Of a stretch of DNA of 64,000 bases, positions 4,130-26,357 are shown piece after piece. Under the pieces are notes generated by a model, which worked only from the letters and a program-made list of their open reading frames with translations, had not been told where the DNA came from and ran no database searches. Made by a program: the position numbers and the translations under genes. Source of the stretch: Blasia pusilla (lineage: Eukaryota). The DNA lies in assembly GCA_050084515.1 (NCBI GenBank), contig CM114271.1:42160001-42224000 (forward strand), read 5' to 3'. Position 1 is the stretch's first letter, and each line of letters begins with the position of its first letter.

Positions 4130-4670
4130 GTTGATATATATCTCATATGTGGCAATGCAATGCGCTACAATGGACCAAATATGATATATTACAAGCAGGT
4201 AATGTGTGAAAGGTTTTAGGTTGCGATGTTGATGATGTTAACCTTTCATGCATGCTGCATTTTGATAGCTTTATTTTGGTTCCTCATAGGATCTTGTTTT
4301 TTCCAGGCACGGGCTATCAAGGATATAGCTCGGAGGGCATTGGAAGGTATTAGAAGTAAGCTTGGAGGGGAAATTTGGAAACCTGTATCCCACAAAAAGA
4401 AACCACCTCCGCCCAAGAAACTTCACTCTAAGAAACCAACTCCCAGCAAAGTGCGATTTGATGTTGCAAGTTCAGACTTTGCCTCAGGTGCAACATTGGC
4501 TGGGGATGGAGAAGTCGGGGGATGGTCTAATTCTACTGTGGATGCGGGGAAAGCTAAGAAAGGGGCATCAATGGAGAAGCTGGTGGGCATGGGTGAGGAT
4601 TCTGAAAGTGCGTGGGCCTTCCAAATTGGTTCTACTGAAGGCAAAGTTGATGAACAAGACGAGCCCTCAG
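4130..4670 (+). pseudogene. Bromodomain-protein gene fragment (exons 4130-4198 and 4307-4670), interrupted by the MULE
   Basis: Spliced translation VDIYLICGNAMRYNGPNMIYYKQ|ARAIKDIARRAL matches the bromodomain B/C helices with the conserved YN. GT-AG intron 4199-4306; next donor GTATAT at 4671. Upstream exons were not found. Confidence 0.7.
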
Positions 4671-5377
4671 GTATATGGGGGCTGGTATTCTGGCAGGAGA
4701 GAGGAAGAGAGAAGAGGAAGAGAGGAAGAGAGGAGAGTCTCTCTTAAAAAGAAAAGGGCCAAATCCGCCTCCTCTCTTCAAAATGTTTTGATATATTTGA
4801 AATTTTTGTTTGCTTTCAAATTCATGAAATCTTTAGAAGAGAGTAGGTAGTGGTCCACATTCAAGCCTAAAGAAACCTCCTTTTTCCAAGGGGCGAAAAA
4901 CAAATAGACATCATAAGACCACTACAAACATTTTTTCATCACTCTCCATGTGAGCCTAAGTTTCTTCACATTGCCTGTCTTAGTCTACAGTAAGTTGTGC
5001 TGAGGGATATTTTTGTTGGAGGACCATTGGCAACTAATTTGACCAGAAGTAGCAATCTCATCTCAATGAAAGGTTCAAATAAAGACCAACTTTGTGAAAT
5101 GTGAACATAGGAGACGATAATTAAACCAAAAGATTGTTAGCTGTCTGGAGTAAAGAGGAACTAAAGTCCCTTCATTGAGATCCTAAATCTGATAAACCGA
5201 GAAGCTGCACCCCTCCCAACCTGTCGGAATTTTACAGGTTCCAACTCTTGCAACCCGTGGGAATCAGATGGCTTGCACCCCTTGCAAGCAAACTCACCAT
5301 AACAAAGGAAAGATTTTGAGAAGTGATTCCATTCCACCCTGCACCCATGAAAATCCAACTGTTTGGGAATCCGAAAT

Positions 5378-6510: not shown

Positions 6511-6550
6511 CAAACGCTGCAGTCAAGCTGGGTCCTTGAGTTCTTTGAAC

Positions 6551-9500
6551 TCACTCGTCATCGTCCGAGAGCTCTTCCAGAATTACAGTCGGCCTTGCCC
6601 TCCCGATTTTTGGAATTGTGGGAAGTGAAGATGGTGTCACTACCAATGGTGGGTTTGGAACTGGAGCTCTTGGCTTCAGAGGAGAGTTGTGCGCCCCAAC
6701 TAGCCTGTCGTAATCTGCCTTTGCCTCTTTGCAAAGGTCAAACAGTTCTTGCCTTCCCTCAAGGCAGAGAATGTTCATGCCACTCTGCCAGGCGCCTCTG
6801 ATACTCGCCCCTGAAAGGCCCACTAAGTCGAACACCAAGTCACCCGGCCTTGAGTAGAGCTCGATGAGCGTTTGCATCAGGGCTGGTGACTTTTCCCTTT
6901 CTCCAAGTAAGGGGGTACCGTCTTGCATGTAAATTCCCGAGGGAGAATTGTATAAACTGTCTAAGCTATACCGATCGGAGCATGGATCCATAGGATACAG
7001 GATCTTAAACACCTTGAAGTTGTGCTCGGGCCGAACAAAGCAGTTAACATGGGAGTGGTCCATCTGTAAAGAAGCACGTTGGAAACAATGTTGGCAACAA
7101 GAAAGAGCTACTTGACCATTGGTCTACTCTCAGTATGGTGACAAAATGTGCAACACGTCCCCAAAGTACTTCGCTTAACCCCAGAGAACTTCGTTATAAT
7201 CCTAACATTAGAGCAACCTGTCGGAGTCCGACAGGTTTTCTTACAAGAGTTAGTGATTTTTTTGTCCATGAGCAATCTATCAGAAGGCAATAGGTTGCTG
7301 GCTTAGAGCAGCCCATGGTTGGTTAAGAGCAACCCGTCGCTTTCAGATGGGTTGCATCATTCCAGAAACACAAGGAAAAAGCATAAGCACTTGCAACCCG
7401 TCGGGTTCCGACGGGTTGCATTCACCCAATGGAGACTTGCGGTAAATTTGCAACCCGTCGCTTTCAGACGGATTGCACCACCGAAGTCTCCAGCTCAAAC
7501 AATCCGACGGGTTGCATGCAGAGATGCAACCCGTCGGAGAAAAACAATTTGGATACAGATTTAGAGCCCTTACCCGGATTTGACTCGTCGCGGATCGGAG
7601 TGGGTACTCGTTCTTGATGACCCACGATTGCGCCGTCCTCCATTTCAGCGCTCTCTTGACGCACTGCAAGTTGAAGAGCTCGTCCTCGCTCCCTCCAGTC
7701 AAAACAAAGAAATAGGCCCTGTCACTGAAATAAGCCTCTGTAAGGGAAAATAGGAGCGCGATCTGGTCATAAGAAAGAGGGACATTCCAGTCTAGGACCC
7801 CGTCGGACGGATTCTCTTCCCACAAGTGCAACCACGAGGGCAAATCAGTGACTAGGACATCCACCGCCACCTCTTCGACCTCCCCATCGACCGTCTAGGG
7901 AGCATGCCCGTTTTGTTGAAGCTTCCGTCCCAGCGTTGTCAATTTGTCGATGGCGGATGTCGACGCTTGGGAACTGAAACTTTTCAGCTCATCCAGAAGA
8001 TTCGTGCAGTGAATGATGACGCTTGTCCAGATCGTTGTTTCTCTATGTCTTCCCAAGGATGATGGAGTGTATTCCACGTCCTGGTCTGCTCCCTGGGACA
8101 ACCCTGGCGCCTCTCGCTTCCGCTTCTCCCGAGTCTGCGGTCGGCTTGTTGGGGTCTCTATTACCTCCGACTCTGGTGGAGTTATTTTTGCAGAGGACCT
8201 GGTCTGACCCTCTCTCCCCGCTCGCCCGGACGATTCCGGCTCTCGCCTTGAATTTTCAGCCTCTCTTTGGGAAGACTCGGCCTCGGAATTCTTCGATCCC
8301 CTCGCCTTGGCTTTGAGACCCGCTGTAGATTTGTCCTTGGCATTGACGACCTTGGACACCAACTCCACTGTCTCGAGGGCTTGCTCCTCCCCATCTCCTT
8401 CGAAAAAGTTTTCAGGCTGCACAAAATTGGGGATGTCGTCCCTACCTGAGGCCACTGCATCATAGAGCAGGCGTAGATCTTTCTCGGTTATGTCCTCAGG
8501 GTCGTTGAAGTCCAGCCAGATCGGGAAATTCTCCACCTTCCAATCGGACATGCTTTGAGCCATCTCCATGTCGTACATGGAAAATGTCTCTCCATCAGGC
8601 AAAGAAGCCCACAATTTGCAGGTTGCCGGTATTTTTTGCCATGTATGTGCATTCTTACAATGGAGGAGGTACTTGAACACCATGCGTTGGGCAACTCTTA
8701 GTCGAGATGCATCGGCTGTCTGCTCCTAAAGATCTCGCTTCTTCTTTGCGAAATCCCTTTTCTTTGCCTCTATTTCTTCATCAAGGTCTGCCTGAGGGAG
8801 GATGCGATCCTTGAACATCGTCTTGAAACCTGGGTTTTTATGGGCTTGTCCCGTATGTAATCCAGCCAAAGTTCAAAATCTTCAGCATTCTCTAGGTTTG
8901 CTTCCTCCGAAACTGGCTCTATTCTTTTCAGCTCCGCTTGGAGACCCACGAGCATGGACTTCCCGAGAAGCCGCAACGCGTCCCAGAATGACCATTCATG
9001 GAGCCAATGGGAGATCACTGGATCAGAGACATCCGGAGGTTGGTGTGCCGCCCTCTTTTGGGCCTCTGTGCCCTTGAGACTAATTTTCATCAGTCGGATT
9101 CTCTTAAATTTCAAAATTCCAGACAAGGCAAATCGATGCACGCGATCGAGAGACACTTTCTCCCCAATCCGACTGTGCGGATCTTCATCCCTCTTCCGCT
9201 AGTGCTTGATTATCGCCTTCAGCTCCTTGAAGAAATCGAGGCCAAGTTCGGAGCTGAGAATGGCGATGTAGCGCTGCATCTTGCTTGCCATGTACTTCGT
9301 AGCTGCAGATACTGCAGCTTGGATGAACTTAGCACGCTCAGACATAGACACTTTCTCCCTCCGCTCGAGCTCCAATGCAACGCTCTTCTTGGCGGCCTGT
9401 ATCTTCGACCAGCAAAGGATTGTCACGACTGCATCTTGGGAAATAAATGTATTTGCCCAAGTTTTTTTTTTATGATAGCACCCTTTGCCAGCATCTCACT

Positions 9501-9613
9501 TATAAGGGCGTCGCCCAAGAACGCCTTATACTCTGTCGGGTGCATCGTTAGCACTTTCTTCACCCGATCGCAATCCTAGATCCAGTGGTGGGACGTTCCC
9601 CTCCGATACAATC
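6551..9613 (-). pseudogene. ParB-MTase cargo gene, outer copy, 3' exons (9613-7574 and 7063-6551): beta-class N4/N6 DNA methyltransferase-like domain
   Basis: AVDVLVTDLPS (motif IV-like) precedes EKSPALMQTLIELYSRPGDLVFDLVGLSGASIRGAWQSGMNILCLE (motifs X-I-II-like). GT-AG intron 7573-7064. Several in-frame stops and frameshifts. Confidence 0.8.
7213..7540. repeat. Array of 29-bp palindromes in the MTase intron (outer copy)
   Basis: About 7 copies, e.g. TGCAACCCGTCGGGTTCCGACGGGTTGCA at about 7392-7420. Confidence 0.9.
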
Positions 9614-9662
9614 CTGCACATCCAAACTCAATATAAGAAATTTTGCAAGCTACATGGGTTCC

Positions 9663-10310
9663 TGCAACTCGTCGGACTCCGATAGGTCGTCACAACTCAT
9701 GGTCGGAATGGTAGCTACAAGCTAAATTTTGCAACCCATCGGAGTCCGACGGATTGCATTCAGATTTGTGATTTCCAGGTTTCAACCCGTCGGACTCCGA
9801 CAGGTTGTCAGATAATTTGTATTTAGAGAGTGGTTACCGCGAGAAAAGTGAACATATCAACCCGTCGGAGTCCGACAGGTTGCGCAATTTCAATTAAAGC
9901 TGCAATTTGACGCCAAAAATCTAGCTCCCCTACTCCGATCACCTTCCCGTGTCAGCGAATGCAACCTGTCGGACTCCGACGAGTTGCTTTCGGCCAAAAA
10001 CATCCAAAAACATCTGCCAGTCAAGCAACCCGTCGGACTCTGACGAGTTACTTTCTTCCAAGAACATCCAAAAATAGCGGCCGGTCGAGCAACTCGTTGG
10101 ACTCCGACGAGTTGCTTTTAGCCAAAAACATCCTAAACCAATGGTCAGTCAAACAACTCGTCGGACTCCGACGAGTTGCTTTCGGCCAAAAACATCCTAA
10201 ACTAGTGGTCAGTCAAACAACTCGTCGGACTCCGACGAGTTGCTTCCGGCCAAAAACATCCCAAAAATAGTGGCGACTCAAACAACTTGTCGGAGTCCGA
10301 CAATTTGCAA
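9663..10310. repeat. Palindrome array in cargo-gene intron 2 (outer copy), partly a ~64-bp tandem repeat
   Basis: About 10 copies of CAAC(C/T)CGTCGGACTCCGACG(A/G)GTTG. Spacers from 9960 to 10310 are related to each other (..GGCCAAAAACATCC..). Confidence 0.9.
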
Positions 10311-10721
10311 CAAGAGGAGGTGCGGTAAGAGGAGAGGAAGAGAGGAAGAGAGGAGAGAGGAGAGAGGAAACTACCTTCAACCGAAATAGATACTTTTTTT
10401 TGAAGAGAGTTTCCGTTGGGTTGAAGAGAGGAAAATTTTTGTTTGAATTTTGTTGCACTTTTTTGTTCATATATTAAGCAGTCCCCCAGTTTTTTTTTCC
10501 TCTTCCATATTTTGGCAACCCCTCTGAGTCCGACGAGTTCCAAATTGCTCAAAATTTAGAAAACTGAAAAATTGGTGGAATCATAAGTGTGGAACCAATC
10601 ACTTTTTCCATCCAAGGTCTGGAAAAAATCTGTCATTTGCCCGGGGCTGAATAGAGTTCAAGCTCAAAGTGAAGGTTGAGAAAAACAATAAAAGTACAAT
10701 CTAAAACCTCATTTTGCATCC

Positions 10722-13700
10722 TCAAAGTGGTTTGTTTAAAATACTTCGAACTTCTTTGAGGAATAGAATTGGTTGGTGGACTCCTACTCCTACCTCCGAC
10801 TCTCTTAAAACTACCAGCAACACATAGTACATGTGTTTACAAGGGAAATACCTTTTGCCACTTGTCTCTCTTTGGACAAAGTCATCACATGAACATGTGG
10901 GAAAGCAACAGATGTGCACCACATACACCCCTGTGACACTTGAATTTACAGTGTTGTTCCTGACCCAATACATCCTTCCTATTCCATTGCCACTCAAGAC
11001 ATCTTTCATGGCGATGATCTCCATTTTTGCCTCCCGAGTTGATGCAATTCGCTTTGCTCTCTCCACCGTTGGCCTGCACATTCTGTTTCTCTTCACCCCA
11101 TTTCTAGACTCAAACAGAAATAATGGATTGAGATCATCCACCTTCTCCGGGTACATGTTGACATCAATCTTGGGTTGAATACGAAATGCGAAGGTCTCTG
11201 TAATGCGAACATGCTCCGAACTTCCCCCGTCTACGAGTCTGAAACCGGCACTTGTAAGATTGTCCACTTCGTCTTGAGTGTAGTTCGTACCTACGGCGAT
11301 GGGCCAAATCGTTGGGGTATTCCCGGGAGCTCCAATGGCAGCCGGATAAGACTTCTAGAAAGCGCAAGATTCATTTGGGCAGAAGTACTTCAATTGATCC
11401 CCGGTCCTCGTGAAACAATCAAAGGTTTTGAGTCCCCAAAACCGAGGCAGTGGTCGTCCAGTCCTTGTACAGTTCTATTTAGGAAAGTGCCGCATGCTCT
11501 CCTAATGCCATCAGATCCTGCCCTGCAGGTGGGTCCACGTCCTGGGTTGCTCCGAGATATATGCCACCGTTTTAGGTTGCAATCCACCTCCATTACCGGA
11601 ATCCCATATTGTTGAACCACCCCAGTGACAGGATGTTGCGAACTTCCAAGAACGGAGGGCTTTTGAAATAAAACATTCACTGATTTTGGAGAAGTAACTC
11701 CATCACGATTTGGGACGGGTCCGGGGTTCCCGAATACCTGGGCGGTGTAATTTCCTCATCCAAATCAATCACCGGATTCGTTCCTCGATGCTGCCTCTTC
11801 ACCTGCCTGAAGTCAAGATACTTATCTGGTCTCCACGAGTCTCGCTCGGACTGCTCTACCACCATCTGTATGGGACGTCTTGAAACCCGCCCACGAATAT
11901 CCCCACCAATGTATATGTCTTGCTCGAGTGGAGTTCCATCTACGCACCGGTTGAAGGCTTCCACATACATTTTTTCATCACCAGATCTCACAGCCGCCCT
12001 GACATAGAGCTCGTAGATCGACGGCCCCTTTCCTTTTGTTATGCCTTTTGTGAGGAAGATATGGGATGCTGTAGATTGTAGCATTGCTCTTGCCTGGTCT
12101 TGTTGGCATGCCTCCACAAGTGAAATTCGTTGGCATGCTTGTGACGACCTCTAGGAGGAATGAACACTTTCTGCTCCACTTGTGTTGGGGCAGAGGGCAT
12201 TTTCATGAACGTTCAATCCCTGCAACGACGGAAATGTTAGAAGGGAACGAAAATAACTCAAGAGTCAAAGAAATAAGCGACCTGTCGGAACCAGACGGGT
12301 TGCAGGCCCGAGGCATCCCATGAACGACTCTGCAACCCAACGGAAACCGACGTGTTGTAATCTTAAACCCACCTACTGCAACCTGTCGGAACCAGACGGG
12401 TTGCAAGCCCGAGGCATTCCATGAACGACTCTGCGACCCGTCGGGTCCCGACGTGTTGTAACCTTAAACCCACCTACTGCAACCTGTCGGAACCAGACGG
12501 GTTGCAAGCTCGAGGCATTCCATGAACAACTCTGCGACCCGTCGGGTCCCGACGTGTTGTAACCTTAAACCCACCTACTGCAACCCGTCGGAACCAGACG
12601 GGTTGCAAGGCCAAGGCATCCCATGAACGACTCTGTGATACGTCGGGTCCCGACGGGTTGCACACTCGGGTTGCACCAAAAAATCTGGATGCAATCCGTC
12701 GGTTTCCGTCGGGTTGCACACTCGGGCAACCCGTCGCATCCGACAGCTTGCTTGGTTTCTTGGGTTTGAAATCCATATAGTTCCCACGCTTCTCACCGTG
12801 AGCTACAACTTTACAAACAATTCTCAGCGTGAGCTTGACAAGACAAAATAGTGAACTCACCTGCCGCATGAAGTTTCCCCATTGTCTCATGCGTACAGTC
12901 CACCAACTCAACCAAGAGCACAACTCTTTGTACTTCCCCTCAATCGCATGCTTCCTCCACCACCCATGAAGTTCTTCCTGGCATTCCATGGCCTGCTTCA
13001 AGGTTTTGCTATCCTTGCAACGTTGGAGTAGAGTCACATGCTGTGTCCTCTTATTCTCCTTGATGCAAGATTTGGTGTACCGGTCACTGATCGTTGCCAA
13101 TGGAAAGCATCCGACCTTTCCTCTCCGGTTGAACCTCTCCACCCGAGAACACTTCCCGGATAGCAATCCACCCAGGTTGTGCATTGTCCGCCATGAACCC
13201 ATAAATTTCGGAGGTGGCCTTTTGTTTTCCTTCACCACCTCCAATAAGAGTAACCAACATATCTTCAAACCGCCAACGTCTTTCGCTTTACTTCACAGAC
13301 AAATATAGTTTTGAGTCCCTTCTCCACATGGTCATAAACGTGAGCAGCCATCGTCAACCATCCGTTCAGCACTCAGAGCAAATATCAAAGCTTACCCAGC
13401 TCCCGTAAAGATCTTCCCCTTCCCTCATTCGATCTATAAGATCGAGGCCACTCGACGGACCTGAGGTTGACATTTTTAAGACATAGATCCTGGATCCCTC
13501 GCCTCCTTGGCCCATGAAGCGCCATCTCTCGAATGAATGGAAATCTGGAGTTGGCCTTGATTCGCGATGGCATCCATTTCGGCCGTCTTTCCATCCGAAC
13601 TCGTGTTTGACGCAAACAAATTCGAAAGCATTCGGGATCAGCGAGAAATGCGAGATTTTCCCAGTTGTTTCTCCTCAACCGTGATCTCGCCTGTCTAGGG

Positions 13701-14859
13701 ATTTCAAGAAATTTTTCACAAATTTGTGATGCCGTTAGAGCTTGATCACTCCGGGCTTTGAACCCGGAGAGTTTTCAGAGACCTCGGCTACTTTCTTCGC
13801 CACATCCTCCTTGATGTGTCTTTGAATTGCATCGGTCACAGGATGAGTGTGGGAGCCAACATGAACTGCCAGCCTTGTATACTCTGACGTGGAGCCCAAG
13901 TCGTGGACAATGAAAAATATGTATGCATGACACGCTCCAACGCAGAAGGGCGATGCCTGACAATGAGGACATCGATGGCCTCCCGGCCGTATGGTGGCAC
14001 CGACCTCGTATGGAGTTTCTGCATTCTTGGGAGGGAATTGCGACGTATTGACTCGCCCGTTGCGCTCTAGATACAGGCATGCTGGACTTCTACACTACAA
14101 GGCTCCCACGCATTGGCGGCGGGAGATAATCCAAGGACCATTTGGAATTGAAGCACTGGTCCGTTGAAGCCTGCACCATCGATGACAATCAGACTTTCTG
14201 TCCATACCCTTCAGGCATCCTCCATCCTTCTTTTGAGCAGGAGCAGCAAGTGGAGGCAACTCAAAAATGCAATTACCATCGTACGTGGGCGGTAGCTTGT
14301 CGACGAGAATGTGCTTGAACATTTTCAAGGCCAGAGACGAAAGCAAACTATTGCCTGCTACTCGCAAGAGGAACGAGTAGGCGGATAGAGGGCCTGATTG
14401 GTGTCCGACAGATCCACTGAGGTTGATAACATCCGGAATCTCTTCAGGAAGAACAACATTGTTACGAGCATGTGAAGTTGGAGTCGAAGCCGGATATGCA
14501 GAGCTTGGAGTTGCAAACGTAGAGCTCGGAGCACTAGGAAATTCTAGACCATCTACTTGGGAAACAGACCAATTCAGGGGCAGGCCGTAAACTATGTATT
14601 GACCATTTGCTAGAGGTAGGAGATTCCATACTTTACGGTCTGAGGTCACTGGCTGGACCGTCTCACCTATTATGTCTTCCGTACCGTCCACCCTAACATC
14701 TTTGGATACAAAGATGGTTCCAATTTGGAGAAGAAATCGAAGACAGAAAATTTTCATCCTTTGCTATGAAAGACTCACGAGCTTGGGGTCGAATGATTTA
14801 CGATTGAGGAAGGGTCTGCCAGGATGAGCGCCACAAGTGAGCTTAACATAATTATCCAT
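10722..14859 (-). pseudogene. MULE-type DDE transposase with N-terminal GCM/WRKY-like Zn domain and C-terminal SWIM finger (stops, frameshifts)
   Basis: Manual translation: CVGAL*CRSPAC...CPHC...C...HVGSHTHP (about 14112-13820); WVSFD (~13385); GFMADNAQPGWIAIREVF...AFHW (~13200-13100); NTSGAESVH (~12170); CSCDDF...FPCKH SWIM (~10895-10830). Intron 12860-12220; probable short first exon from ATG 14859. Confidence 0.85.
12277..12750. repeat. Palindrome array in the transposase intron, with ~103-bp tandem units
   Basis: Repeated CAACC(T/C)GTCGGAACCAGACGGGTTGCAAG...GACCCGTCGGGTCCCGACGTGTTGTAACCTTAAACCCACCTACTG. Confidence 0.9.
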
Positions 14860-15039
14860 TCCAAGAAGATTCCAATGGGAGGAGACGAGAATGAGAATGA
14901 GAATGAGAATTTTTAATTTATAGTGAATAGGAAAATGATACTTCGATGATTTTTCTTGACAAGATGAATTCGGTGGGTGACATTTGCGACACAATGGATC
15001 CATTCAGAACACATTCAATTCTGTTGCAATATGTTACCG

Positions 15040-15760
15040 GATTTGGGAAGCAGAGGGTTGCGCATCACACTTGGAACTCGTCGGAGTCCTGGTAACTCAA
15101 AAATTACCCGAAGCTAACCGAAGCCTGCAACCCGTCGGCTTCGGACGGGTTGCACGCTTCTGCCAAACATTGTCAAAGCGAGCAACCCGTCGCTCTCCGA
15201 TGAGTTGCTCGGATACCGCTCCTTCTTGCCCGAAGATGCCCGAGGCGTGCAAACCGTCTGTTCCCGACAAGTTCCGCGGGTGCCTCACCTATTTGCCCAA
15301 AGACGGCGAGGCGTGCAACCCGTCGCCCTCCAATGGGTTGCGCAAGGGCCTCGCCTTGTGGTGCAGCCACCCGAACTCCGACGACTTGCACGGGAAGCCC
15401 GCATTCTTAACCCTTGATGAGGGAAGCGTGCAACCCAACGGTCTCCGACGGATTGCCCAAGATATGTCCCGTTCCCGTCCCAAACACGGCGGAGGCGCGC
15501 AACATGTCGGTCTCCGACGGGTTGCGCGGGTACCTCGCGTTCTTTTCCAAAGACGATGGAGGCGCTCAACCCGTCGGTCTCTGACGGGTTGCTCGCGCAC
15601 GTGGCGACGTACCCAGGATGGCGGAGGCGCGCAACCTGTCGGACTCCGACGGGTTGCCATTTTTCACGTCCGGACTTCCGTAACCTCCGGCACGTCGCCG
15701 TCGAAAGGACGACGGGACCCAACGGTCAGCCCAACGGCTAGAAAAGTATAAATAGGGCAG
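15040..15760. promoter_or_regulatory. CpG-rich divergent promoter region with ~11 palindromes and a TATA box for the cargo gene
   Basis: Lies between the two head-to-head genes. TATAAATA at 15747-15754 is conserved in the outer copy (23575-23582, minus strand). Confidence 0.6.
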
Positions 15761-17176
15761 AAATCGCTCATTTCCGGTTTCTCATTTCGCGATCTTCATT
15801 CCTCACTCTCCCGCGCAGCAGTTGATCAGATACGAAGGGGCGTTTCACACGGTGACACATCGCGAGTCGATAGGAGGGAACGAGAGCAAGACGATTCGAC
15901 CAAACGACAGCGAGACGGTTCGACTGAACGATCGCAGGACGATTCGAGCTACCCATCAAGGCGATTCGAGCTCCCCATCTTGACATCAGCAAGGCGATTG
16001 ATCAAGGGATTCGTCATGGACATAGGTGGAGGCATTTCCGGAAAAAATGACGAGGAAAAAATCACAAGCCAACAAGTCTGGGAGCTTCACCCCGAAGTCC
16101 ATTAGGACTCCTGCTTCAGCATCTCCTGGGCCTCGTTCGGCGAATGAAATTAGGCAGCAGGAAATCGAGGAGCGGGAAAGGGAAGCGGAGATGCACAACC
16201 AAGTGCTTCTTGCGAGACGTGTTCAAGAGGCGCTAGATAAAGAGAACGCAGAGGCTGAGACATCGCAGGCCTTGAAGAAGTGATAGCCATTGACGATAGT
16301 CCTGCCCGTCCAACCGCAAGTGTTGAGATGCGGGAAATGTCCCCCATGAAGTCCGGGGACACAATCAACATAGTGGAAACGCCAGAAGTTGAAATCGATG
16401 ACGACGAGGTCATGAGGACCGCCAGCGTGGAGATGGTGGACATGGCCGAAGAAGCCGGAGAGCGGTCATTCTCGACTCCAAGCCCGGCGGAGGACATCGA
16501 CCTCTATCGGATCAACGAGTTCCCAGTCGATTTGCCAGCTTCTGTCTCAGACAAGTTAGCTGGTCAAGAAACCGACCCCATTTTTGAGCGGGTAAGAGAG
16601 GATATGGGTTTTTTGAATTATGTGAATTGCAATTCATTGGAAATTCAGTGTAGCTTATTCATCTTGTCCCGATTTTGACAGGTGGTAAAGCAGATGGCAC
16701 TCATGGAGGGCCACAACGCCCCGAGGATTCCACTCTGCCGATTGCGGACAATGGAATACGTCCGTGAAATTGAGTCCGATGAGGACATCGCGAAGCTTAA
16801 ACAATCAGCGGCGACAACATCCTACGTCGACAGATTTCCTCCCTTCTATGTTCAGCCTTACGACGAGCATGGAACCCAAGCTCTGGTTACGGAGGAGGAC
16901 TTGGAAAAGCTCGACACATTCTGGAGGATGCGAGACCAGGATTTCAGAAGGCAAGTTGAGGGCACGGAATTCAGCTGGATGAGGAATCTGCATTTCTTCA
17001 TCTGGGATGGAAATCACAGGTTCATGGCGTGGACCAAGTTTGCGGAGGAGTGGACCAACTCATTGGAGGCACATTTCTGCGTGAAGGTAGTGGTCCTTCA
17101 CCCATTCCCTCATCACATGGCGACGGTGGAGATGGCAATGCATGCCATCAACACGTGAGTATCTTTAACACTTACG

Positions 17177-17705
17177 CAACTCGTCGGACTCCGACCAGTT
17201 GCTCGATTGATGAATGGGTTAGGTTTGTTTTTGCCGAAAGCAACTCGTCGGACTCCGACGGGTTGCTCGACTCCACGCTTTTTGGATGTTTTTTTAAGAA
17301 TGCAACTCGTTGGACTCCGACTAGTTGTTCGATTGACCACAGATTTAATTAGTTTTTGGCCCAAAGCAAACCGTCAGAGGGTTGCTCGACTTGCCGCCTT
17401 GTCAGGATGTTTTTTGAAGAATGCAACTCGTCGGACTCCGACGAGTTGTTCGATTGACTGCAGGTTTAGAAGGTTTTTTCCCCAAAGCAACTCGTCGAAG
17501 TCCAATGGGTTGCTTGCCTCAAAACTGTTTTTGGCCGATATCAACCCGTCGGAGTCCGACGGGTTGCATTCGGAAGTTAGTTCCCCAAATTTCGCGTCAA
17601 ATTGCAAGTTTACATTCAACTACGCAATCTGTCGAACTCCGACGGGTTGCTATGTTCACGTTAATATGTTCAGTTGCACAACCCGTCGGAGTCCGACGGG
17701 TTGAA
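17177..17705. repeat. Palindrome array in cargo-gene intron 2 (inner copy)
   Basis: About 9 copies; perfect CAACCCGTCGGA-G-TCCGACGGGTTG at 17542-17566. Confidence 0.9.
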
Positions 17706-19301
17706 ACCAGGCATTAGCAAATCTGAATGCAATCCTCCGGGTGTGTCCGATCCAGTGATCTCGCACGGGCTACGCGAATGGTCATTCTGGGACGCATTTC
17801 GGGTTATCGGGAAGTCCGTGGTGGACGGTCTGCAAGCGGAGCTCAGAAGATTAGAGCCCATCCCGGATGAAGCAAACCTTGAAAGTTCTGGGGATTTCGA
17901 GGTTTGGCTCGACGACATCCGGGACAAGCCAACCAAAAACCCATGATTCAAGACCATGTTCAAGGTTTGCGTCCTCCCTCAAGCAGAGCTTGAAAAAGAA
18001 GTAGAGGGGAACAAACGGGATCAAGCCAAGAAGAAGCGAGATCTACAAGAGCAGACGGCCGATTCTGTTTGACTAAAAGCTGCCCAACGGATGGTCTTCA
18101 AGTACCTCGTCCAGTGTAAGAATGCAGGTACGTGGGGAAAATTACCGGTAGCCTTGAAATTGTGGGCTTCGCCGCCGGATGCAGAGGCATTCTCCATGTA
18201 CGACATGGAGATGGGATAGCACATGTCCGATTGGGAGGTGGAGAATTGCCCCATTTGGCTCGACTTCAACGACCCTGAAGACATCACCGATAAGAATTTA
18301 CGAGTGCTTCATGATGCAATGGCCTCAGGACAAGACGACATCCCCAATTTTTTCCAGCCTGAAGACTTCTTTGGCGGAGATGCAGAAGAGCAGGCCCACG
18401 AGACAGCTGAGTTGGCTTCCAAGGTCCGCACAACCAAAGACAAATCCACAGCGGGTCTCAAAGGCAAGGCGAGGGGAGGCAAAAATTCAGAGGCGGAGTC
18501 TTCCCAAAGAGAGGCTAAAGATTCAAGGCCAGAGGCGGAATCGTCCAGGCGAGCGGGGAGAGAGGGTTGGACCAGGTCCTCGGCAAAAAAAACCCCACCA
18601 GAGTCTGAGGTCATAGAGACCCCGACAAGCCGTCCGCAGACTAGGGAGAAGCGGAAGCGAGAGGTGCCAAGGTTGTCCCAAGGAGAATACAGTCCATCAT
18701 CCTTGGGAAGACATAGAGAAACAACGACCCGGACAAGCGTCCTCCTTCAGTTCACTCCTTTACTGGATGAGCTGAAGAGCTTCAGTTCTCAATCGTCAAC
18801 ACTAGCAATTGATAAATTGGCAATGCTGAGACGGAAGCTCCAACGAAACGGGCACGCTGCCTGGACGGTGAATGGAGTGGTCGAAGAGGTTGCGGTGGAT
18901 CTCTTGATCGCCGATCTGCCCTCGGGGTTGCGACTTTGGGGCAAGAATCCATCGGACGAGGTACCTCAGTGGAATGTGCCGCTCTTCTTATGACCAGATT
19001 GCGCTATTGTTCTCCTTTGCACACGCCTATCTGAGTGACAGGGGCTGCTTCTTGGTGTTGACTGGAGGGAGCGAGGACGAGCTCTTCAACCTCCAGTGCA
19101 TCAAGAGGTCGCTAAAGTGGAGGACGGCGCAATCGTGGATCATAAAAAATGAGTACCCACTCCGATCCGCGACGAGTCAGATTCGGGTAAAGCTCAATTC
19201 CTGTACTATAATTTCAATTATATTTTCATGATGTGTATAATGAGTTTTCATCTCCGTTGAGTGAGTATAATGAGTGTCAATCTCCGTTTTTTTTGTCTGT
19301 G

Positions 19302-19690
19302 AGCAACCCGTCGGAAGGCGACGGGTTGTTGGCTTAGCGCAGCCCATGCTCGACTAAGAGCAACCCGTCGGTTTCCGACGGGTTGCATCTCTCCCACATA
19401 CATAGGGAAAACCGCGGTGTACCTGCAACCCGTCGGAACCCGACGGGTTGCAGTTGCTTTTGGTTTTTCCCAATTGCTTTTGGTTTTTGGATGCAACCCG
19501 TCTAATAGCGACGGGTTGCTCTCAGGCAAGCATGGGCTGCTCTAGGCCAGCAACCCGTCGCCTTCCGACGGGTTGCTCACGGACAAAAACAACGGAGCCC
19601 GACGGGTTGTTTTAGTCCCTGACCAACCCGTCGGAAGGCGACGGGTTGGTCCGGGACAAAACAACCCGTCGGACTCCGATAGGTTGATCC
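19302..19690. repeat. Palindrome array in the MTase intron (inner copy)
   Basis: About 8 copies; TGCAACCCGTCGG-AAC-CCGACGGGTTGCA at 19424-19452. Confidence 0.9.
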
Positions 19691-22112
19691 AAAGTCAGTA
19701 ATTGAAAATGTCCTCAAGCCGACTTCTTTAGTTGCTGACATTGTTTCCAACGTGCTGATTTACAGATGGACCACTCCTACGTGTACTGCTTCGTTCGGCC
19801 GGAGCACAATTTCTAGGTGTTCAAGATCTAGGATCTTGTGGATCCATGCTCAGATGGGTACAACTTAGATAGTTTGTACAATTCCCCCCCGGGAATTTAC
19901 ATGCAAGACAGTACCCCACTTCTGGGAGGAAGGGAAAAGTCGCCAGCCCTGATGCAAACGCTCATCGAGCTCTGCTCAAGGCCGGGTGACTTGGTGTTCG
20001 ACTTAGTGGGACTTTCAGGGGCAAGTATCAAAGGCGCCTGGCAAAGTGGCAGGAACATTCTCGCCTCGAGGAAGGCAGAATCTGTTTGACCTTTGCAAGG
20101 AGGCAAAGGCGAATCTGAAAGGCTCGTTGGGGCACAACTCTCCACCAAAGCCGAGAGCTCGGTTTCCGGACCCATCCTTGGTAGTGACTCCATCGTCACT
20201 TCCAACAATTCCAAAAGGAGGGCAAGGCCGAAAGTAATTTTGCAAGGCTCGGACGATGACGAGTGAGTTCAAAGAACTCAACGACCAAAGCTTGACTTTG
20301 CAAACATTTGGAGTAGGGAGTTTTTTGATGATGAGGCAAAAGATTTCATAGAATAGATCAAATGTCTGATTCGAGCTTTTTCGGATGATATAAAGCAGAA
20401 GATTTTTTCGAACGATGGTGGTTCTTGTAAAAGTTTGCTGAACATTTTTTGTCTTTTCAAATGTGATCGTCTATGTACTCCACGGACTTCTATTTTGCAA
20501 CCCGTCGGATTTCTCCTGCTTGCAACTTTTCACTTTTGACCACTTGCAACCGTCGGATTTTCTTTTGCAACTTTTCACTTTTGACCATCGCACCTTTTTA
20601 CCACTTCCAGGCAACCTATTGGATTCTGACAGGTTGCCTAATCGGACTCTTTCCCTGTTGGTCCAACTTAAGAGGCAGTATGGCGGGCTTCTTCCCTTGG
20701 CACCTTCCCCTCAACTCGTAAAGGCAGGCTTAGGCTTCTTTTCTTCTCTCAGACATGTTGGATTCCTACTACCTGTGCGATTGCCATAATGGTATTACCG
20801 GGGACGGAGCAGATATTGATACTGGATGGGTGTCACATTGTAGAGCGTACAAGGTATACTGCCGAGGAAGGCGGTGGGACTCGAATCATGTTACATGGGA
20901 CCGTTATGGTGTACCTAGGGGGGGGCCAAGGCTCTCGAATTCGCCAACATTTTCGATCCCCGTCTACAATCGGCCAGAGGAGCCACTTGTATCCCAGGAC
21001 ATTCCTTTGGTAGTGTCACCGAGGAGAGTTAGGAGTAAATTTGTAGATGACGAGGCTGAAGAAATCATAGACTAGGTCAAATGTACATTTCCGAGGTTCC
21101 TTCGGAGGTAATAAAGGACGAGATTTTTTCAACCCATAATGGTGTTTGTAAAAGTTTGCTGGAATATTTTTTTGGACTTGTGGATTGTGTTCTTTTAGCT
21201 ACTCAGAATTACAATTCTGCAACCCGTATGATTCCAACGGGTTGCAACTGTTTGCTTTTTGCCCACTGCAACTTTTTTACCATTTCAGGCAAGTCAGCCG
21301 GATTCCAACAGTTGATCGCTTGAGTGATCGGACTCTATCCCGGTGAGACCAACTTCTGACGCATTGTGGTGGGCTTCTTAACTTTTGGCTCGTTCCCCTA
21401 CATTCGTCAAACCAGTTGTAGGCTTCTTCTCTGGTCTAAGATGTGCAGGATTCCTACTACCTGTCGGATTGCCATTTCGGATTCCCAGCCTGTTAGATCG
21501 TCGTGGGTGCAGGGTGGAAGAAAATCACTTCTAAAAATCTTTCCTTTCTTTTGGTGAGCTTTCTTACGGGTTGGGAGGGGTGCAGTTTCTAGGTTTCTCA
21601 GCCTTAGGATCTTATGTGTTCACATTTCACAAAGTTGGTCTTGAGCAGACACTATTCATAACCAACAGAAAGTTGGTTATGGGGCAATTTAGGGGAGGCC
21701 ATGATCTGAGGCAAAATCCTCGCAAAAAGAGAGGTTGGCATCCGGGTGGTCCTCCAACAAAAATACCAAGGGCACTGCTTTTTGTTGACCGAGACAAGGA
21801 ATGTTAAGAAACTTAGGCTCACATAGAGAGTGATGGAAAAATGTTTGTAGTGGTCTTATGATGTCTCCTTTTTTCTCGTCCCTAGGAAAGAGGAGGTTTT
21901 TTTAGGGCCAAATGTGGACCACTAAATACTCTCTTCTAAAGATTTCTTGAATTTGAAAGCAAACAAAAACTTCAAATATGTCAAAAAGTTTTGAAGAGAG
22001 GAGGCGGATTTGGCCCTTTTTTTTTAAGAGAGACTCTCCTCTCTTCCTCTCTTCCTCTCCTCTCTTACTCTCTCCTGCCAGAATACCAGCCCCCCAACAA
22101 GAGGAAACTTAC

Positions 22113-23313
22113 GTGTTCATGGCATGCATGGCCATCTCCACCATCGCCATGTGATGAGGGTATGGATGTAGCACGACTGCCTTCACGCAAAAATGCGCCT
22201 CCAATGAGTTTGGGTGCTCCTCTGCAAGTTGGGTCCACGCCATAAACCTGTGGTTTCCATCCCAGATGAAGAAATACAGGTTCTGCATCCAGCTGAATTC
22301 CGTCCCCTCAATCGCCCTTATGAATTCCTGATCTCTCATCCTCCAAAATGTGTCGAGAGCTTCCAAGTCCTCCTCCGTAACCAACGCTTGGGTTCCATGT
22401 TGATTGTAAGGCTGAACATAGAACAGAGGGAAACTGTCGGCGTAGGATGCTGTCGCTGCGGATTGTTTCAGCTTCCCTATATCCTCGTCAGACTGAATTT
22501 CGCGGACGTACTCCATTGTTGGCAATCGGCAGAGTGGAATTCTCGGGCCGTTCTGGCCCTCCGTCAGTGCCATCTGCTTTACCTCCTGTCACAACGGGGA
22601 CAAGGTCAATAAGCTACACTGAATTGCCAATGAATTGCAACATGGGCCTTCACATAACTCAAAGAACACAAATCATATATTACCTGCTCAAAGATTGGGT
22701 CGGTATCTTGGCCAGCCAACTCCTCTGGGACAGCCGCTGGCAAGTCCACTGGAAACTTGTCGATCCGATAGAGGTCGATTTCTTCTGCCGGGCTTAGAGA
22801 TGAGAATGACCGCTCTCCTGCTTCTTCAGCGATGTCCACCATCTGCACGCTGGCGGTCCTCATGACCTCATCGTCCGTCACTTGAACTTCGGCCGTTTCC
22901 GCTATATTGATTGTGTCCCCGGACTTCATCGGGGACATTTCCTACATCTCAACACTTTCGGTTGGACGGGCAGGGCTTTCTTCAATGGCAATCGCTTTTT
23001 CCCTCAAAGCTTTTGCCAATTCTGCTCTCCTCACCGACGCGTCCAGACGCTTCTTTTCATGCTTTTCGTCGGCGATCCTTTTCTTCAAGGCCTGCGATGC
23101 CTCAACCTCTGCGTCTTGTTTTTCGAGCGCCTCCTTTACACGTTTTGCAAGAAGCTCTTGCTTATGCATCTCCGCTTCCCTTTCCCGCTCCTCGATTTCT
23201 TGATGCCTTATCTCATTGGCCGAACGAGGCCCTGGAGATGGTGACACAAGAGTCCTCATGGACTTGGGAGTGAAGCTCCCAGCCTTGTTTGCTTGAGATT
23301 TTTTCCTCGTCAT
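22113..23313 (-). pseudogene. ParB-MTase cargo gene, outer copy, 5' exons (23313-22684 and 22585-22113; ParB/Srx domain)
   Basis: MTRKKSQANK...; second exon with YFFIWDGNHRFMAW; in-frame TAG at 22942. The gene continues at 9613 once the inner element is removed. Confidence 0.82.
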
Positions 23314-23669
23314 TGTTCCCAAAATGCCTCCTATGGACAAGGAAATTGCTATCTGTGCACGATGAATCGCCTCGAGGAGTTGCCTTGATGAGTCGCCTTG
23401 CTGATGTCGTGATGAGTCACCTTGATGAGTAGCTCGAATCGTCTCACGTTCTTTCCCTTGAATTGTCTCGCGATGAGTCACAGTGTAAAGCGCCCCTTGG
23501 TATCTGGTCAACTGTTGCGCGGAAGAGCAATTGAGATCGCAAAACGAAAAACCGGAAACGAGCAAACCCTCGCCTATTTATACTTTTCGAGCCGTTAGGC
23601 TGACCGTTGGGTTGCATCATCATTCCGACGGTGACGTATCGGCCGTTATGGAAGTTTGGACGTGAAAAA

Positions 23670-24230
23670 CACCAACCTGACGGCTCCAACGGGTTGCACG
23701 CTTCCTGCGGGTTCCAGGCATCCATCCTCCTGGCAACCTGTCGGAGACCGACACGTTGCTCGCCTCCGCCATCTTCGGACAAGAACGCGAGGTACCCATG
23801 CAACCTGTAAGAGACCGGTGGGTTGCACACTTCCCTCATCTTGGGATAACAAGGCCGGCTACCCGCGCAACTCGTCGGAGGCCGACACGTTGCACGCTTC
23901 TTTCATGTAAGCGTTAGAAACGAACGGATTGCCTGAGTGTGCAACCAGTCGAAAACCGACGGGTTGCATCAAGAATTTTGGTGCAACCCGTATACAAGTA
24001 TGCAAGTCGCATGTATACAAGGCTTGCAAATAGTTTGACCGGATGGGTTTCGGATGACTTGCACTTGGATCTTCCAACCCGGAGTGGCCAAAGGTTCTTG
24101 CAACCCGTCGAAATCGGACGGGTTGCAGTAGGTGGTTCCTGGGTGTTGCAACACGTCGGGACCCGACGGGTTGCAGAGTCGTTCATGGGATGCCTCGGCC
24201 TTGCAACCCGTCTGGTTCGGACAGGTAGCT
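23670..24230. repeat. Palindrome array formed by fusion of the promoter array and transposase-intron array (outer copy)
   Basis: Left part resembles the inner promoter (reverse complement). From about 24100 it matches the inner intron at 12220-12410. Confidence 0.8.
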
Positions 24231-24286
24231 TATTTCTTTGACTTCTGAGCTATTTTCGTTCCCTTCTCACATTGCCGTCGTTGCAG

Positions 24287-26357
24287 GGATTGAACATTCA
24301 TAAAAATGCCCCAACACAAGTGGAGCAAAAAGTGTTCATTCCTCCTCGAGGTCGTCACAAGCATGCCAACAAATTTCACTTGTGGAGTCATGCCAACAAG
24401 ACCAAGCAAGAGCAATGCTACAGTCTACAGCATCCCATATCTTCCTCATAAAAGGCATAACAAAAGGAAGGGGGCCTTCGATCTACGAGCTCTATGTCAC
24501 GGCGGCTGTGAGATCTGGTGATGAAAAACTCTATGTGGAAGCCTTCAACCAGTGCGTAGCATGAACTCCCCTCGAGCAAGACGTACACATTGGTGGGGAT
24601 TTTCGTGGGCGGGTTTCAAGACGTCCCATACAGATGGTGGTAGAGCAGTCCGAGCGAGACTCGTGGAGACCAAATCTTGACTTCAGGCAGGTGAAGAGGC
24701 AGCATCGAGGAACAAATACGGTGATTGATTTGGATGAGGAAATTACGCTCCCCAAGTATTCGGGGATCCCGAACCGCTCCCAAATCCATGATGGAGTAAC
24801 TTCTCCAAAATCAGTGAATGTTTTATTTCAAAAGCCCTCCGTTGCTGGAAGTTTGCAACATCCGGTCGCTGGGGTGGTTCAACAATATGGGATTCCGGTC
24901 ATGGAGGTGGATTTCCACCTGAAACGGTGGCATATATCTCGGAGCAACCCCGGACGTGGACCCACTTGCAGGGCAGGATTTGATGGCATAAGGAGAGCAT
25001 GCGGCACTTTCCTAAATAAGTATTGTAGAAGGACTAGACGACCACTGCCTGGGTTTTGAGGACTTAAAACCTTTGATCATTTCACGGGGATCAATTGAAG
25101 TAATTCTTCTATCCAAATGAAACTTGCGCTTTCTAGAAGTCTTATCCGACTGCCATTGGAGCTCCGGGGAATACCCCCACGATTTGGCCCATCCCCGTAG
25201 GTACGAACTCCACTCAAGACGGAGTGGACAATCTTACAAGTGCCGGTTTCAGACTCGTAGATGGAGGAAGTTCGGAGCATGTTCGTATTACAGAGACCTT
25301 CGCATTTCCTATTCAACCCAAGATTGATGTCAACATGTACTCGGAGAAGGTGGATGATCTCAATCCATTATTTCTGTTTGAGTCTAGAAATGGGGTGAAG
25401 AGAAACAGAATATGTAGGCCAACGGTGGAGAGAGCAAAGAGAATTGCATCAGCTCAAGAGGAAAAAATGGAGATCATCGCCACCAAAGATGTCCATAGTG
25501 GCAATGGAACAAAGATGCACTTCGATAAAAATGAGTGATGGAAAACCCATCGGAAGTACAAAAGAGGGGGACTCAAAGAGTCAAAACCTGAAGGCCACAA
25601 CACGACCAGAAAAGGAAGAAGGGGGCATTCCCCCTAACGATTTAAACTCACCAACAAAGCAGAGACAATATCAGCAACAACAAGAGAGCTATGACTACTA
25701 CTAAGTGGGCCTCTAGCGCCGGCATCTCCCCTGACTGAGCCCCGCAAAATCCCATTAGCCTGGCACGCTCCAACGCTATGGAGACCGCCGCTACAATCTG
25801 AGTCGCAGTAGCTAAGGACAACCCATTTCTCGAGTGGAGATGATGGGCGCGATCCGTAAGGAACGCAGTCGAACCTCTCCCCCATAGCCCCATACATCTC
25901 TATGGCCAGGGGATGAAGATGTGTCCTCGTGTAGTCGATTGTAGATATGTGTCTTCTTCGCCGCCGCTCCTTGTAGCATTCGCCCTTGGGCCACCACTTG
26001 GGCTCGCACTGCCTCCCGCGTAGGATCTATGACTACCACGTCCGCCACAACCACCTCAGCCTCACGTGTCATGTAGAGATCGGCACGAATGAGGGAATAG
26101 GAAGGATGTATTGGGTCAGGAACAACATTGTAAATTCAAGTGTCACAGGGGTGTATGTGGTGCACATCTTCTGCTTTCCCACATGTTCATGTGATGACTT
26201 TGTCCAAAGAGAGACAAGTGGCAAAAGGTATTTCCCTTGTAAGCACATGTACTATGTGTTGCTTGTAGTTTTAAGAGAGTCGGAGGTAGGAGTAGGAATC
26301 CACCAACCAATTCTGTCCCTCAAAGAATTGCGAAGTATTTTAAACAAACCAATTTGA
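24287..26357 (+). pseudogene. 3' exon of the MULE transposase in the outer copy (SWIM finger), interrupted by a LINE fragment
   Basis: Colinear with 12219-10722 (reverse complement); FPTCSCDDF...FPCKHMYY. The 5' exons are absent. Confidence 0.88.
25510..26093 (-). mobile_element. 5'-truncated non-LTR retrotransposon (restriction-like endonuclease type, CRE-like)
   Basis: Absent from the inner copy; GGAA is present on both sides. VVADVVVIDPTR...AAAKK..Y and AVSIALERA resemble the ORF at 59763-60482. Confidence 0.75.

Follow-up and report, generated by a model that had tools for sequence, protein, structure and literature searches.

Dense arrays of a 29-bp palindrome in the non-coding DNA of a nested transposon family from Blasia pusilla are candidate sites for an element-encoded protein

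Results

Organization of the locus

We analyzed 64,000 bp of the Blasia pusilla genome (contig CM114271.1 of assembly GCA_050084515.1, positions 42,160,001 to 42,224,000 of the forward strand); "the window" below is this whole stretch, and positions are counted from its first letter. A preliminary description, made by a model from the letters alone, had drawn attention to the interval 15040–15730 and to a palindrome repeated through the non-coding DNA of "the element" around it. The palindromes are indeed confined to element DNA, but what looked like a single element is really a pair of related transposons, E1 nested inside E2 of the same family, together with a fragment of a third member (Table 1). 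E1 and E2 share a layout in which a central region separates two genes, X and Y, that are read outwards, Y leftwards and X rightwards in E1.

On both sides of E1 stands the 9-bp sequence ACAAGAGGA (10310–10318 and 22097–22105), a perfect duplication, and because the flanks share an 11-bp string, the ends of E1 are uncertain by 2 bp. E2, which totals 10,300 bp over its two parts, likewise has a perfect duplication of 9 bp, CAGGTATAT (4668–4676 and 26773–26781). The nesting was established by comparing the window with itself and by two global alignments, and the X-side part of E2 is colinear with E1 positions 17176–22094, inverted, at 68–89% identity. From the nesting and the target duplications we conclude that members of the family once moved, integrating in a cut-and-paste manner. 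The termini, GGGGGCTGG... and GAGGTGCGG..., are G-rich and GA-rich, and the element ends align with each other as GA-rich imperfect terminal inverted repeats, a match that is largely simple sequence. CACTA (En/Spm) elements have CACTA termini and a 3-bp target duplication; these termini, and a duplication of 9 bp instead of 3 bp, do not match that group.

E1 lies in intron 1 of E2's gene X (10281–10318 and 22097–22125), 16 nt past the 5′ splice site, and landed 0–2 bp from the first palindrome of the intron-1 array of E2. This may reflect insertion tethered to the palindromes or, as a single case, chance. Compared with E2, the Y half of E1 (10319–17163) is 89–96% identical and the X half (17160–22096) 72–93%, mostly 78–88%; the two halves may have different histories (e.g., recombination between subfamilies) or may be under different constraint. 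Present in E1 only are 2.4 kb (12720–15100) encoding an N-terminal extension that the long relatives of Y (~750 aa) have as well, and in E2 only two inserts of ~0.6–0.7 kb (9040–9750 and 25509–26094). In the third fragment, the terminal ~170 bp (35500–35672) aligns with E1 at 77%, and the only other match is a 34-nt GA-rich simple repeat matching the Y end of E1.

Table 1. Features of the transposon family in the window
Feature	Position	Strand	Content	Basis or remark
E1	10319–22096		11,778 bp; 37 palindromes	Nested in E2; 9-bp duplication, self-comparison
E1 single palindrome	10514–10542		1 palindrome, 195 bp from Y end	E2 counterpart 26534–26562
E1 gene Y, conserved block	10731–12216	minus	~500 aa, C-terminal SWIM zinc finger	tblastn of relatives
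E1 Y-upstream array	12276–12718		9 palindromes; 101-bp (55+46) repeat	Upstream of ~500-aa Y block; 2-nt-center copy at 12726
E1 central array (flagged)	15126–15658		9 palindromes, 48–69 bp apart	Between Y and X, upstream of TATAAATA at ~15749
E1 X exon with DGNHR	16679–17155	plus	Possibly ParB/sulfiredoxin-like	Two window copies and three relatives aligned
E1 X intron-1 array	17175–17705		8 palindromes	
E1 X intron-2 array	19302–19688		7 palindromes, one perfect (19424–19452)	
E1 X methyltransferase-like exon	19766–20300	plus	AdoMet-binding motif region at C-terminal part	E2: 6554–7123, minus
E1 3′ non-coding region of X	20496–21246		3 scattered palindromes (20496, 20610, 21218)	
E2, X-side part	4677–10309	minus	21 palindromes	Minus-strand reading
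E2 X 3′ region	5215–6322		6 palindromes in three pairs (5215–5277, 5535–5634, 6223–6322)	
E2 X intron-2 array	7212–7553		5 palindromes	
E2 X intron-1 array	9663–10309		10 palindromes; 64-bp period	E1 inserted at array edge
E2, remaining part	22106–26772	X minus, Y plus	First X coding block, central region, gene Y; 8 palindromes	
E2 central and Y-upstream arrays	23732–24230		4 copies (23732–23968) and 3 copies (24099–24230)	
Third family fragment	33.7–35.7 kb, end at 35673		5 degraded palindromes at 34373–34808	Divergent

A 29-bp palindrome private to the family within the window

To catalogue the palindrome we searched for TGCAACCCGTCGG-N3-CCGACGGGTTGCA with at most 8 mismatches over the 26 arm positions, leaving the 3 center positions unscored. 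The search gave 71 matches in the 64-kb window, to which all statements on motif distribution here refer, compared with a chance expectation of ~0.2; the preliminary description had estimated about 70. At 3 or fewer mismatches there were 24 matches and none in 100 dinucleotide-preserving shuffles, and each of 20 block shuffles searched at the looser threshold gave 0 or 1 match (1 match in 4 of the 20). By family member the tally is 37 for E1, 29 for E2, and 5 for the degraded third fragment, so that 66 palindromes lie within the 22.1 kb of E1 plus E2, 5 in the divergent fragment, and 0 of 71 elsewhere in the window. None of the 71 falls in an inferred coding segment. Half-sites follow the same pattern: with at most 2 of 12 mismatches allowed, 109 of 123 belong to catalogued palindromes, in the same inverted arrangement, and only 3 of the 123 lie outside the transposon family. 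Successive palindromes are 46–76 bp apart in 45 of 70 cases.

Much of the preliminary description held in this search. Every cluster on its list was recovered, the additions being the single copy at 10514 and the five degraded copies at 34373–34808; its spacing of mostly 50–70 bp agrees with the distances just given; and copies are absent, as it had said, from exons and from DNA outside the family. It had also named an equal frequency of the motif outside the family as what would refute it, and within the window the motif does not occur there. Its placement of copies in "subterminal DNA" is right in that palindromes do lie near the element ends, but the term is loose, the closest being 195 bp from one end and 540–880 bp from the other. 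Its claim that a 3-nt center is held constant can be refined: the geometry is fixed, as the pairing of 109 of 123 half-sites attests, but the center is not fully free, being A-N-T in 37 of 71 palindromes, and an extra palindrome at 12726, beyond the 71, has a center of 2 nt.

When the 71 palindromes are aligned, the information content is ~0 bit across the 12 positions on each side and rises to a maximum of 1.97 bit within, with 0.8–2.0 bit at positions 2–13 and 17–28. Hit selection made no use of positions 14 (A, 73%) and 16 (T, 72%), yet each has 0.7 bit, and the arms are therefore 14 nt long around a single free base, position 15, which shows no base preference. Thus, the real unit is a near-perfect 29-bp palindrome (center GGA-N-TCC). 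The best-kept bases of the arm are CAAC (positions 3–6) and T10, and each palindrome contains two inverted CCGAC cores.

Among the papers listed, literature searches with four motif strings gave only primers in unrelated work and nothing on transposons, and a search on the combination of ParB, methyltransferase, transposon, and SWIM gave nothing relevant; repeat databases and subscription journals could still describe the motif or the family.

Arrays and their turnover

Most palindromes stand in arrays (Table 1), and the flagged interval contains nine, all of them ahead of gene X and its TATA box in E1; each element has one such array. In the four large arrays, copy number in E1 and E2 is 9/4 (central), 9/3 (Y-upstream), 8/10 (X intron 1), and 7/5 (X intron 2). 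The central and Y-upstream arrays adjoin in E2 because E2 lacks the 2.4 kb present at ~12.7–15.1 kb in E1. Young sub-arrays take the form of simple tandem repeats, with periods of 101 bp (92%) and 64 bp (84%), and Tandem Repeats Finder reports a period of 67 (76% matches) over the last 2.7 units of the E1 central array. The 3′ region of X in E2 contains a ~450-bp duplication (5376–5827 versus 6065–6518). Just upstream of the X TATA box are two direct copies of CCCAACGG (15715–15740), which recurs at the corresponding place in E2 (23604–23700); this word may be what is left of a half-site, or it may belong to the promoter as an element in its own right.

Long open frames cross the arrays (14981–15751, 17159–17704, and 12474–13292) because the repeat units contain no stop codons. 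We rejected these frames as genes, since they have no homologues and the array frame that was tested carries no codon-position signal: in the intron-1 array of E1, differences from E2 fall 51/42/37 by codon position, with no third-position bias. Open frames that span arrays should not be annotated as genes. Two further frames in the 3′ region of X, 20442–20786 and 20734–21072, likewise show no codon-position bias.

Conservation of arms, spacers, and CpG dinucleotides

Next, we compared the arms of the palindromes with the spacers between them, taking spacer similarity in the better of the two orientations. Within arrays, arms are 0.73–0.84 alike and spacers 0.30–0.59, and shuffled spacers reach 0.29–0.50. 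Between different arrays of E1, arms are 0.76 alike, whereas spacers (0.41) are at the level of shuffled spacers (0.43). These comparisons bear out two points of the preliminary description, which had proposed the arm-versus-spacer contrast as a check and had described diverse spacers between constant arms. When the four large arrays of E1 are aligned with those of E2, 382 of 441 arm columns and 404 of 618 spacer columns agree (Fisher p 1.4e-15, the columns not being independent), and over the whole elements arms agree at 0.859, spacers at 0.709, and DNA outside arrays at 0.853, values to be read with the tendency of an aligner to set cores on cores in repeat arrays. In the third fragment, palindromes are still recognizable where the remainder is mostly unalignable with E1.

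The consensus palindrome has four CpGs, and the commonest variants of the inner CpG are TG and CA, consistent with the past 5-methylcytosine suggested in the preliminary description. Overall, CpG loss is mild: the observed/expected ratio is 1.28 in palindromes, 0.84 in the remaining element DNA, and 0.72 in 36–64 kb. Between E1 and E2, 0.59 of CpGs are kept in palindromes and 0.44 in the remaining element DNA; CpGs are thus better kept in palindromes, as protection from methylation would give.

Base pairing within the palindrome

If the palindrome acted through folding, changes in one arm would be matched by changes in the other. Across 68 distinct copies, however, pairs 3–6 and 10 show no double-sided change and simply carry the same bases in 53–67 of the 68, and 17% of all arm cells are unpaired. 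The number of pairs with any double-sided change is 8, compared with 6.6 in shuffles, 111 of 500 of which reach it. The outermost pair is UA in 25 copies, AU in 10, GC in 2, and CG in 1. Among cases in which the inner CpG carries transitions in both arms, 8–9 are compensated and 2–3 uncompensated, and part of this compensation arises because the TG bias is common to both arms. On the sense strand, G·U and A·C mismatches are equally frequent (43 each), and since G·U equals A·C on the transcribed strand, nothing suggests selection on an RNA stem. This equality and the position of nine copies upstream of the X TATA box together place the signal at the DNA level.

Calculated hairpin energies are substantial, with -16.7 kcal/mol for the consensus as DNA and means over the 71 copies of -8.5 (DNA) and -14.1 (RNA), compared with -1.5 for control 29-mers from the element. 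Intron 2 of X in E1 also contains an inverted repeat with 108-nt arms that are 89% complementary (19282–19389 and 19490–19597), centered on the perfect palindrome at 19424–19452; as RNA the intron is predicted to form a hairpin with a ~150-bp stem with a minimum free energy of -343 kcal/mol (z -24). Inverted repeats of at least 36 nt are absent from the intron-2 array of E2 and from five further array regions, and pairs of 37–48 nt occur in the other two of the nine regions. Because the E2 counterpart has no such repeat, the intron-2 inverted duplication is private to E1. An Rfam search at E ≤ 1 yielded no family at its gathering score, and the matches to mir-584 (31 bits versus 80) and to a snoRNA model (25 bits versus 37) fall below theirs and were set aside as chance. 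The equality of G·U and A·C, the Rfam result, and the pair counts speak against a structured RNA (microRNA or hairpin).

Genes X and Y

Profile scans covered a set of 18 open reading frames (ORFs) and a second set of 41 (39 of the 82 E1 sense-strand ORFs of at least 40 aa, and 2 of E2), leaving out ORFs inside arrays or nested in longer ORFs. Gene X starts after TATAAATA. Its first intron begins at the 5′ splice site CACG/GTGAGT at 17155, and its second (19187–19765) has GT..AG ends. Differences between E1 and E2 fall 15/15/40 by codon position in the exon with the DGNHR motif, and 40/29/62 in X exons also, which indicates that X was under purifying selection while E1 and E2 diverged.

The DGNHR motif is invariant in five sequences, the two window copies and three unnamed relatives. 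The lead to ParB came from an Atlas neighbor cluster in which 11% of members have ParB_N. In Pfam, the region matches only DUF1015 (E 0.002, below the curated score), and the exon found no match in a PDB profile search, in PHROGs, or by tblastn against phages. Wider protein searches with this exon and with the segment before intron 2 returned no relatives, PDB sequence searches with the X segments following the DGNHR exon gave nothing relevant, and an AlphaFold2 model of the exon from a two-sequence alignment has a predicted local distance difference test score (pLDDT) of 37, too low for the model to be used.

Further downstream, ~55 residues of X match the S-adenosylmethionine (AdoMet)-binding region of DNA methyltransferases with modest significance in each of four libraries: Pfam N6_N4_Mtase (E 1.5e-3; 19 bits, the curated score being 26.7), three DNA methyltransferase families of PHROG (E 7.5e-5, 3.3e-4, and 4e-4), the PDB entry for M.RsrI (E 0.036), and, by tblastn, a methyltransferase from a phage (E 5e-3). 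The catalytic motif of beta-class N6/N4 DNA methyltransferases is (D/S)PP(Y/F/W); the corresponding place in X reads DLPS by eye in both copies, and no profile aligned that half. Among the scanned ORFs there was no helix-turn-helix protein or ParA partner, the best match being a Brinker DNA-binding domain at E 0.069, and no VANC-type Pfam family.

Gene Y has 103 relatives at E ≤ 1e-3, 36 of them at E ≤ 1e-10, among 1.84 billion cluster representatives (clusters at 50% identity), and tblastn places the N-terminal extension of the long forms at 14493–13906 in E1. SWIM is the only family recognized in Y, with E values of 0.0012–0.014 in the window copies (at or below the curated score) and scores above the curated one in three relatives, and the Y family has conserved cysteines. 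The zinc finger and the cysteines make Y a candidate for the palindrome binder. An AlphaFold model of a Y relative, built from 31 sequences, has a pLDDT of 74 and is confident over residues 200–490. This model has no PDB match at E ≤ 0.001 and so gives no ground for assigning Y to the DDE transposases or to another known fold. A two-copy complex prediction for the C-terminal half of a Y relative scored 0.00, with the fold uncertain and the alignment unused, and thus speaks neither for nor against a homodimer. The MULE and DBD_Tnp_Mut domains of Pfam were found neither in the scanned ORFs (E ≤ 1) nor in 18 full-length Y relatives (E ≤ 0.01). The 9-bp duplication and the SWIM finger point towards Mutator-like elements (MULEs), yet no transposase domain was found.

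Other repeats in the window

A Ty1/copia retrotransposon occupies 28682–33723, with long terminal repeats (LTRs) at 28682–29132 and 33232–33723. Its ends are of the TG..CA type, the target duplication is 5 bp (GAAAT), and stop codons break the frames for gag, integrase, and reverse transcriptase. A solo LTR or LTR fragment related to it lies at 16–422. An unrelated repeat family is present at 36742–37221, 47032–47425, and 51678–52092 (72–89% alike, in both orientations), and a 74-bp tandem repeat at 57402–57551.

Discussion

The palindrome has sharp edges and a fixed geometry, is confined to non-coding DNA, keeps its core while the spacers turn over, and decays symmetrically on the two strands. 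In our view it is palindromic because whatever reads it on double-stranded DNA is itself symmetric. The preliminary description had left a choice between sites for a dimeric protein and formers of hairpins or cruciforms; with inner pairs that hardly change, 17% of cells unpaired, equal numbers of G·U and A·C, and one array upstream of the X TATA box, double-stranded DNA binding fits better and a hairpin less well. The reading that we favor, and to which we give about an even chance of being right, is that the palindromes are clustered double-stranded DNA-binding sites for a dimeric protein encoded by the element. Such a protein would bind the palindrome as a symmetric dimer, each monomer reading the half-site (T)GCAACCCGTCGGA, and sites every 46–76 bp would fill whatever in the element can vary, namely the introns, the 3′ region, and the DNA that separates the two divergent genes. 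The product of any one copy would thereby find all copies of the family and little else. By analogy with the VANC and TnpA proteins, binding might switch on transcription of the family or keep it on, and it could do so by opposing host cytosine methylation of the CpG-rich arrays. The survival of CpGs, the fast change in copy number, and the persistence of cores in the third fragment are what this regulator-array model predicts. From the sequence and from these analogies we infer protein binding, an effect on silencing, and X or Y as the binder.

Several observations weigh against binding sites as the explanation. Transcription-factor sites are usually shorter than 29 bp. A DNA-binding domain is demonstrated for neither X nor Y, and the model of the Y relative matches no PDB fold; the ParB/sulfiredoxin signature that DGNHR may represent comes from one motif and a language-model lead. 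Three isolated E1 copies in the 3′ region of X agree with their E2 counterparts, to which their orthology is clear, at 0.82 (78 columns), no better than their surroundings (0.83, 1620 columns), and the contrast of arms and spacers between arrays could arise if cores had been seeded separately into different contexts. Finally, there are 36 compensated cells, compared with 20.7±3.7 in shuffles (0 of 500 reach it) and 19.8 in permutations (0 of 5000), an excess not expected of a pure half-site model.

This modest excess of compensated changes is what a structural role would produce, whether the palindromes formed DNA cruciforms or hairpins that act in recombination, replication, or transposition, or intron RNA hairpins that yield small RNAs or are bound by a double-stranded RNA protein. 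The stable folding of the copies, the mostly intronic location of the arrays, and the long hairpin of intron 2 in E1 speak for it as well. However, we did not take the covariation to prove a hairpin: only by cells, and not by pairs, is the count above every shuffle, and many copies with compensation are tandem duplicates of one another. Duplicated units raise the number of cells, and related rows can exceed every shuffle. Template-switch correction of near-palindromes is a known mutation process, and together with unit duplication it would account for the excess. Several points tell against folding: the lack of covariation at the inner pairs, the restriction of the long hairpin to E1, the array that stands ahead of the X TATA box in each element, a stem that at 13–14 bp is short for Dicer, the unpaired cells, the equal G·U and A·C counts, and the Rfam result. 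We therefore consider a structural role rather unlikely.

The arrays could also be neutral by-products, the palindromic core provoking replication slippage, fold-back synthesis, and template switching, and so multiplying locally, being re-perfected, and being tolerated in non-coding DNA. Copy number differs between E1 and E2 in a way that speaks for fast change, sub-arrays that are young consist of simple tandem units, the inverted duplication private to E1 is centered exactly on a perfect palindrome, isolated copies are conserved no better than their surroundings, and confinement to non-coding DNA is expected of any 0.5-kb array, since an exonic one would destroy the gene. What neutral turnover fails to explain is that cores remain 73–84% alike in arrays whose spacers, for the most part, are no more similar than shuffled ones, which unit duplication followed by neutral decay does not give; that the same core stands at 6 or more separate places per element among unrelated spacers; and that the third fragment has kept its cores although little else of it can be aligned. 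CpG-rich cores should also decay faster, yet their CpGs are kept better than those of the remaining element, and 29 bp is probably short for homogenizing gene conversion. We therefore judge neutral turnover unlikely, though it is the rival that we take most seriously. Host factors are a further possibility. CCGAC is the dehydration-responsive element/C-repeat (DRE/CRT) core, and retrotransposons can carry arrays of host-factor sites; with two inverted CCGAC cores per copy, the palindromes might be read by DREB/CBF-type factors and make the element stress-inducible, as heat-shock elements do in some retrotransposons. But the conserved block is 13–14 nt per arm, the best-kept bases, CAAC and T10, lie outside or at the edge of CCGAC, and a general host factor needs no family-private motif this long, all of which make host-factor sites very improbable.

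For the binding sites that we favor, one specific identity of the reader would be that X is a eukaryotic descendant of the ParB-methylase fusions of bacteria and phages and that the palindrome arrays are its parS- or sopC-like loading sites, a proposal that we regard as quite improbable. An X dimer would in that case read the 14-nt arms. The center is GANTC in 37 of 71 copies, and GANTC is the type of site recognized by CcrM/HinfI-class adenine methylases; X might add a methyl mark other than 5-methylcytosine or, if catalytically dead, coat the arrays against host cytosine methylation, and the same tether could steer insertions towards arrays.

To our knowledge, transposon factors that undo silencing through private motif arrays are known from very few families, namely VANDAL and Spm (in Arabidopsis and maize), and the generality of such an anti-silencing strategy rests on these cases. 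In the family described here the cis side is unusually clear: a long palindrome with sharp edges and fixed geometry, in ~30–37 copies per ~12-kb element. On the trans side are proteins of no characterized family, the methyltransferase-like and possibly ParB-like X and the SWIM protein Y with its many relatives, so that palindrome and proteins form a directly testable pair of site and candidate binder. If X were the binder, a eukaryotic epigenetic conflict would be tied to the machinery with which bacterial mobile elements mark DNA, and if the arrays were neutral they would still be a clean example of palindrome-driven repeat turnover.

As far as the cited accounts go, the closest parallel is VANDAL21, a Mutator-like element whose VANC21 protein binds YAGTATTAY arrays in introns and upstream regions and removes methylation (PMC5735166; PMC10398659). 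There, as here, a dense motif private to the family stands in non-coding DNA, in accessory-gene introns and upstream regions (PMC5735166; PMC10398659). The targets of VANC are carried in tandem repeats whose unit number rises and falls (PMC5735166), just as copy number differs between E1 and E2 and units recur with periods of 64, 67, and 101 bp; density, not single sites, defines the target there and would do so here, and in both systems accessory genes lie beside a transposase-type gene. Unlike the 29-bp palindrome, the VANC21 motif is 9 nt, asymmetric, and in one orientation. The accessory protein here is methyltransferase-like, with no VANC-type protein among the scanned ORFs, and whereas binding and hypomethylation were demonstrated for VANC, the present family is known from its sequence.

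In the maize system, the 12-bp TnpA motif starts with CCGAC, and binding is best where two motifs form a tail-to-tail inverted pair, a point for which we found no supporting paper. The Arabidopsis Spm1 TnpA binds high-density clusters of CCVTCGCAAA and brings about hypomethylation and activation via host demethylases (bioRxiv 10.64898/2026.08.24.746577). What we propose here would resemble it in having an element-encoded regulator with dense cognate clusters, hypomethylation, and activation of its own family. The Spm motifs are at the termini, whereas our arrays spread through the interior, and the 9-bp duplication and the G-rich and GA-rich termini differ from CACTA ends with 3 bp.

ParB-family sites (parS, sopC of F, and KorB operators) are comparable in that a mobile replicon has arrays or sets of palindromes for which it encodes a dimeric reader, and sopC in particular is a tandem array of 43-bp units with one inverted repeat each. 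ParB-methylase fusions exist in bacteria and phages (PMC5512222), and, according to a second account that we cite for this point, ParB-HTH-methylase fusions (HTH, helix-turn-helix) occur in some algae and chytrids (PMC4738411). X differs in being only possibly ParB-like and in having no ParA partner that we could see, an integrated eukaryotic transposon needs no partition, and the exact 24-base pattern has no match across 185,579 bacterial and archaeal genomes, a search that rules out identical sites only.

With MULEs the family shares a 9-bp target duplication (9–11 bp in MULEs), a C-terminal SWIM finger in one encoded protein, and self-nesting, and its imperfect GA-rich ends, whose match is largely simple sequence, may correspond to MULE terminal inverted repeats; it differs in that the scanned ORFs and the 18 Y relatives have no MULE transposase domain and that the Y model matches no solved fold. 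The best supported, though unproven, assignment is to a class that is already known, that of transposon-encoded regulators with private motif arrays, in which this family would be unusual for its long palindromic site and its uncharacterized proteins.

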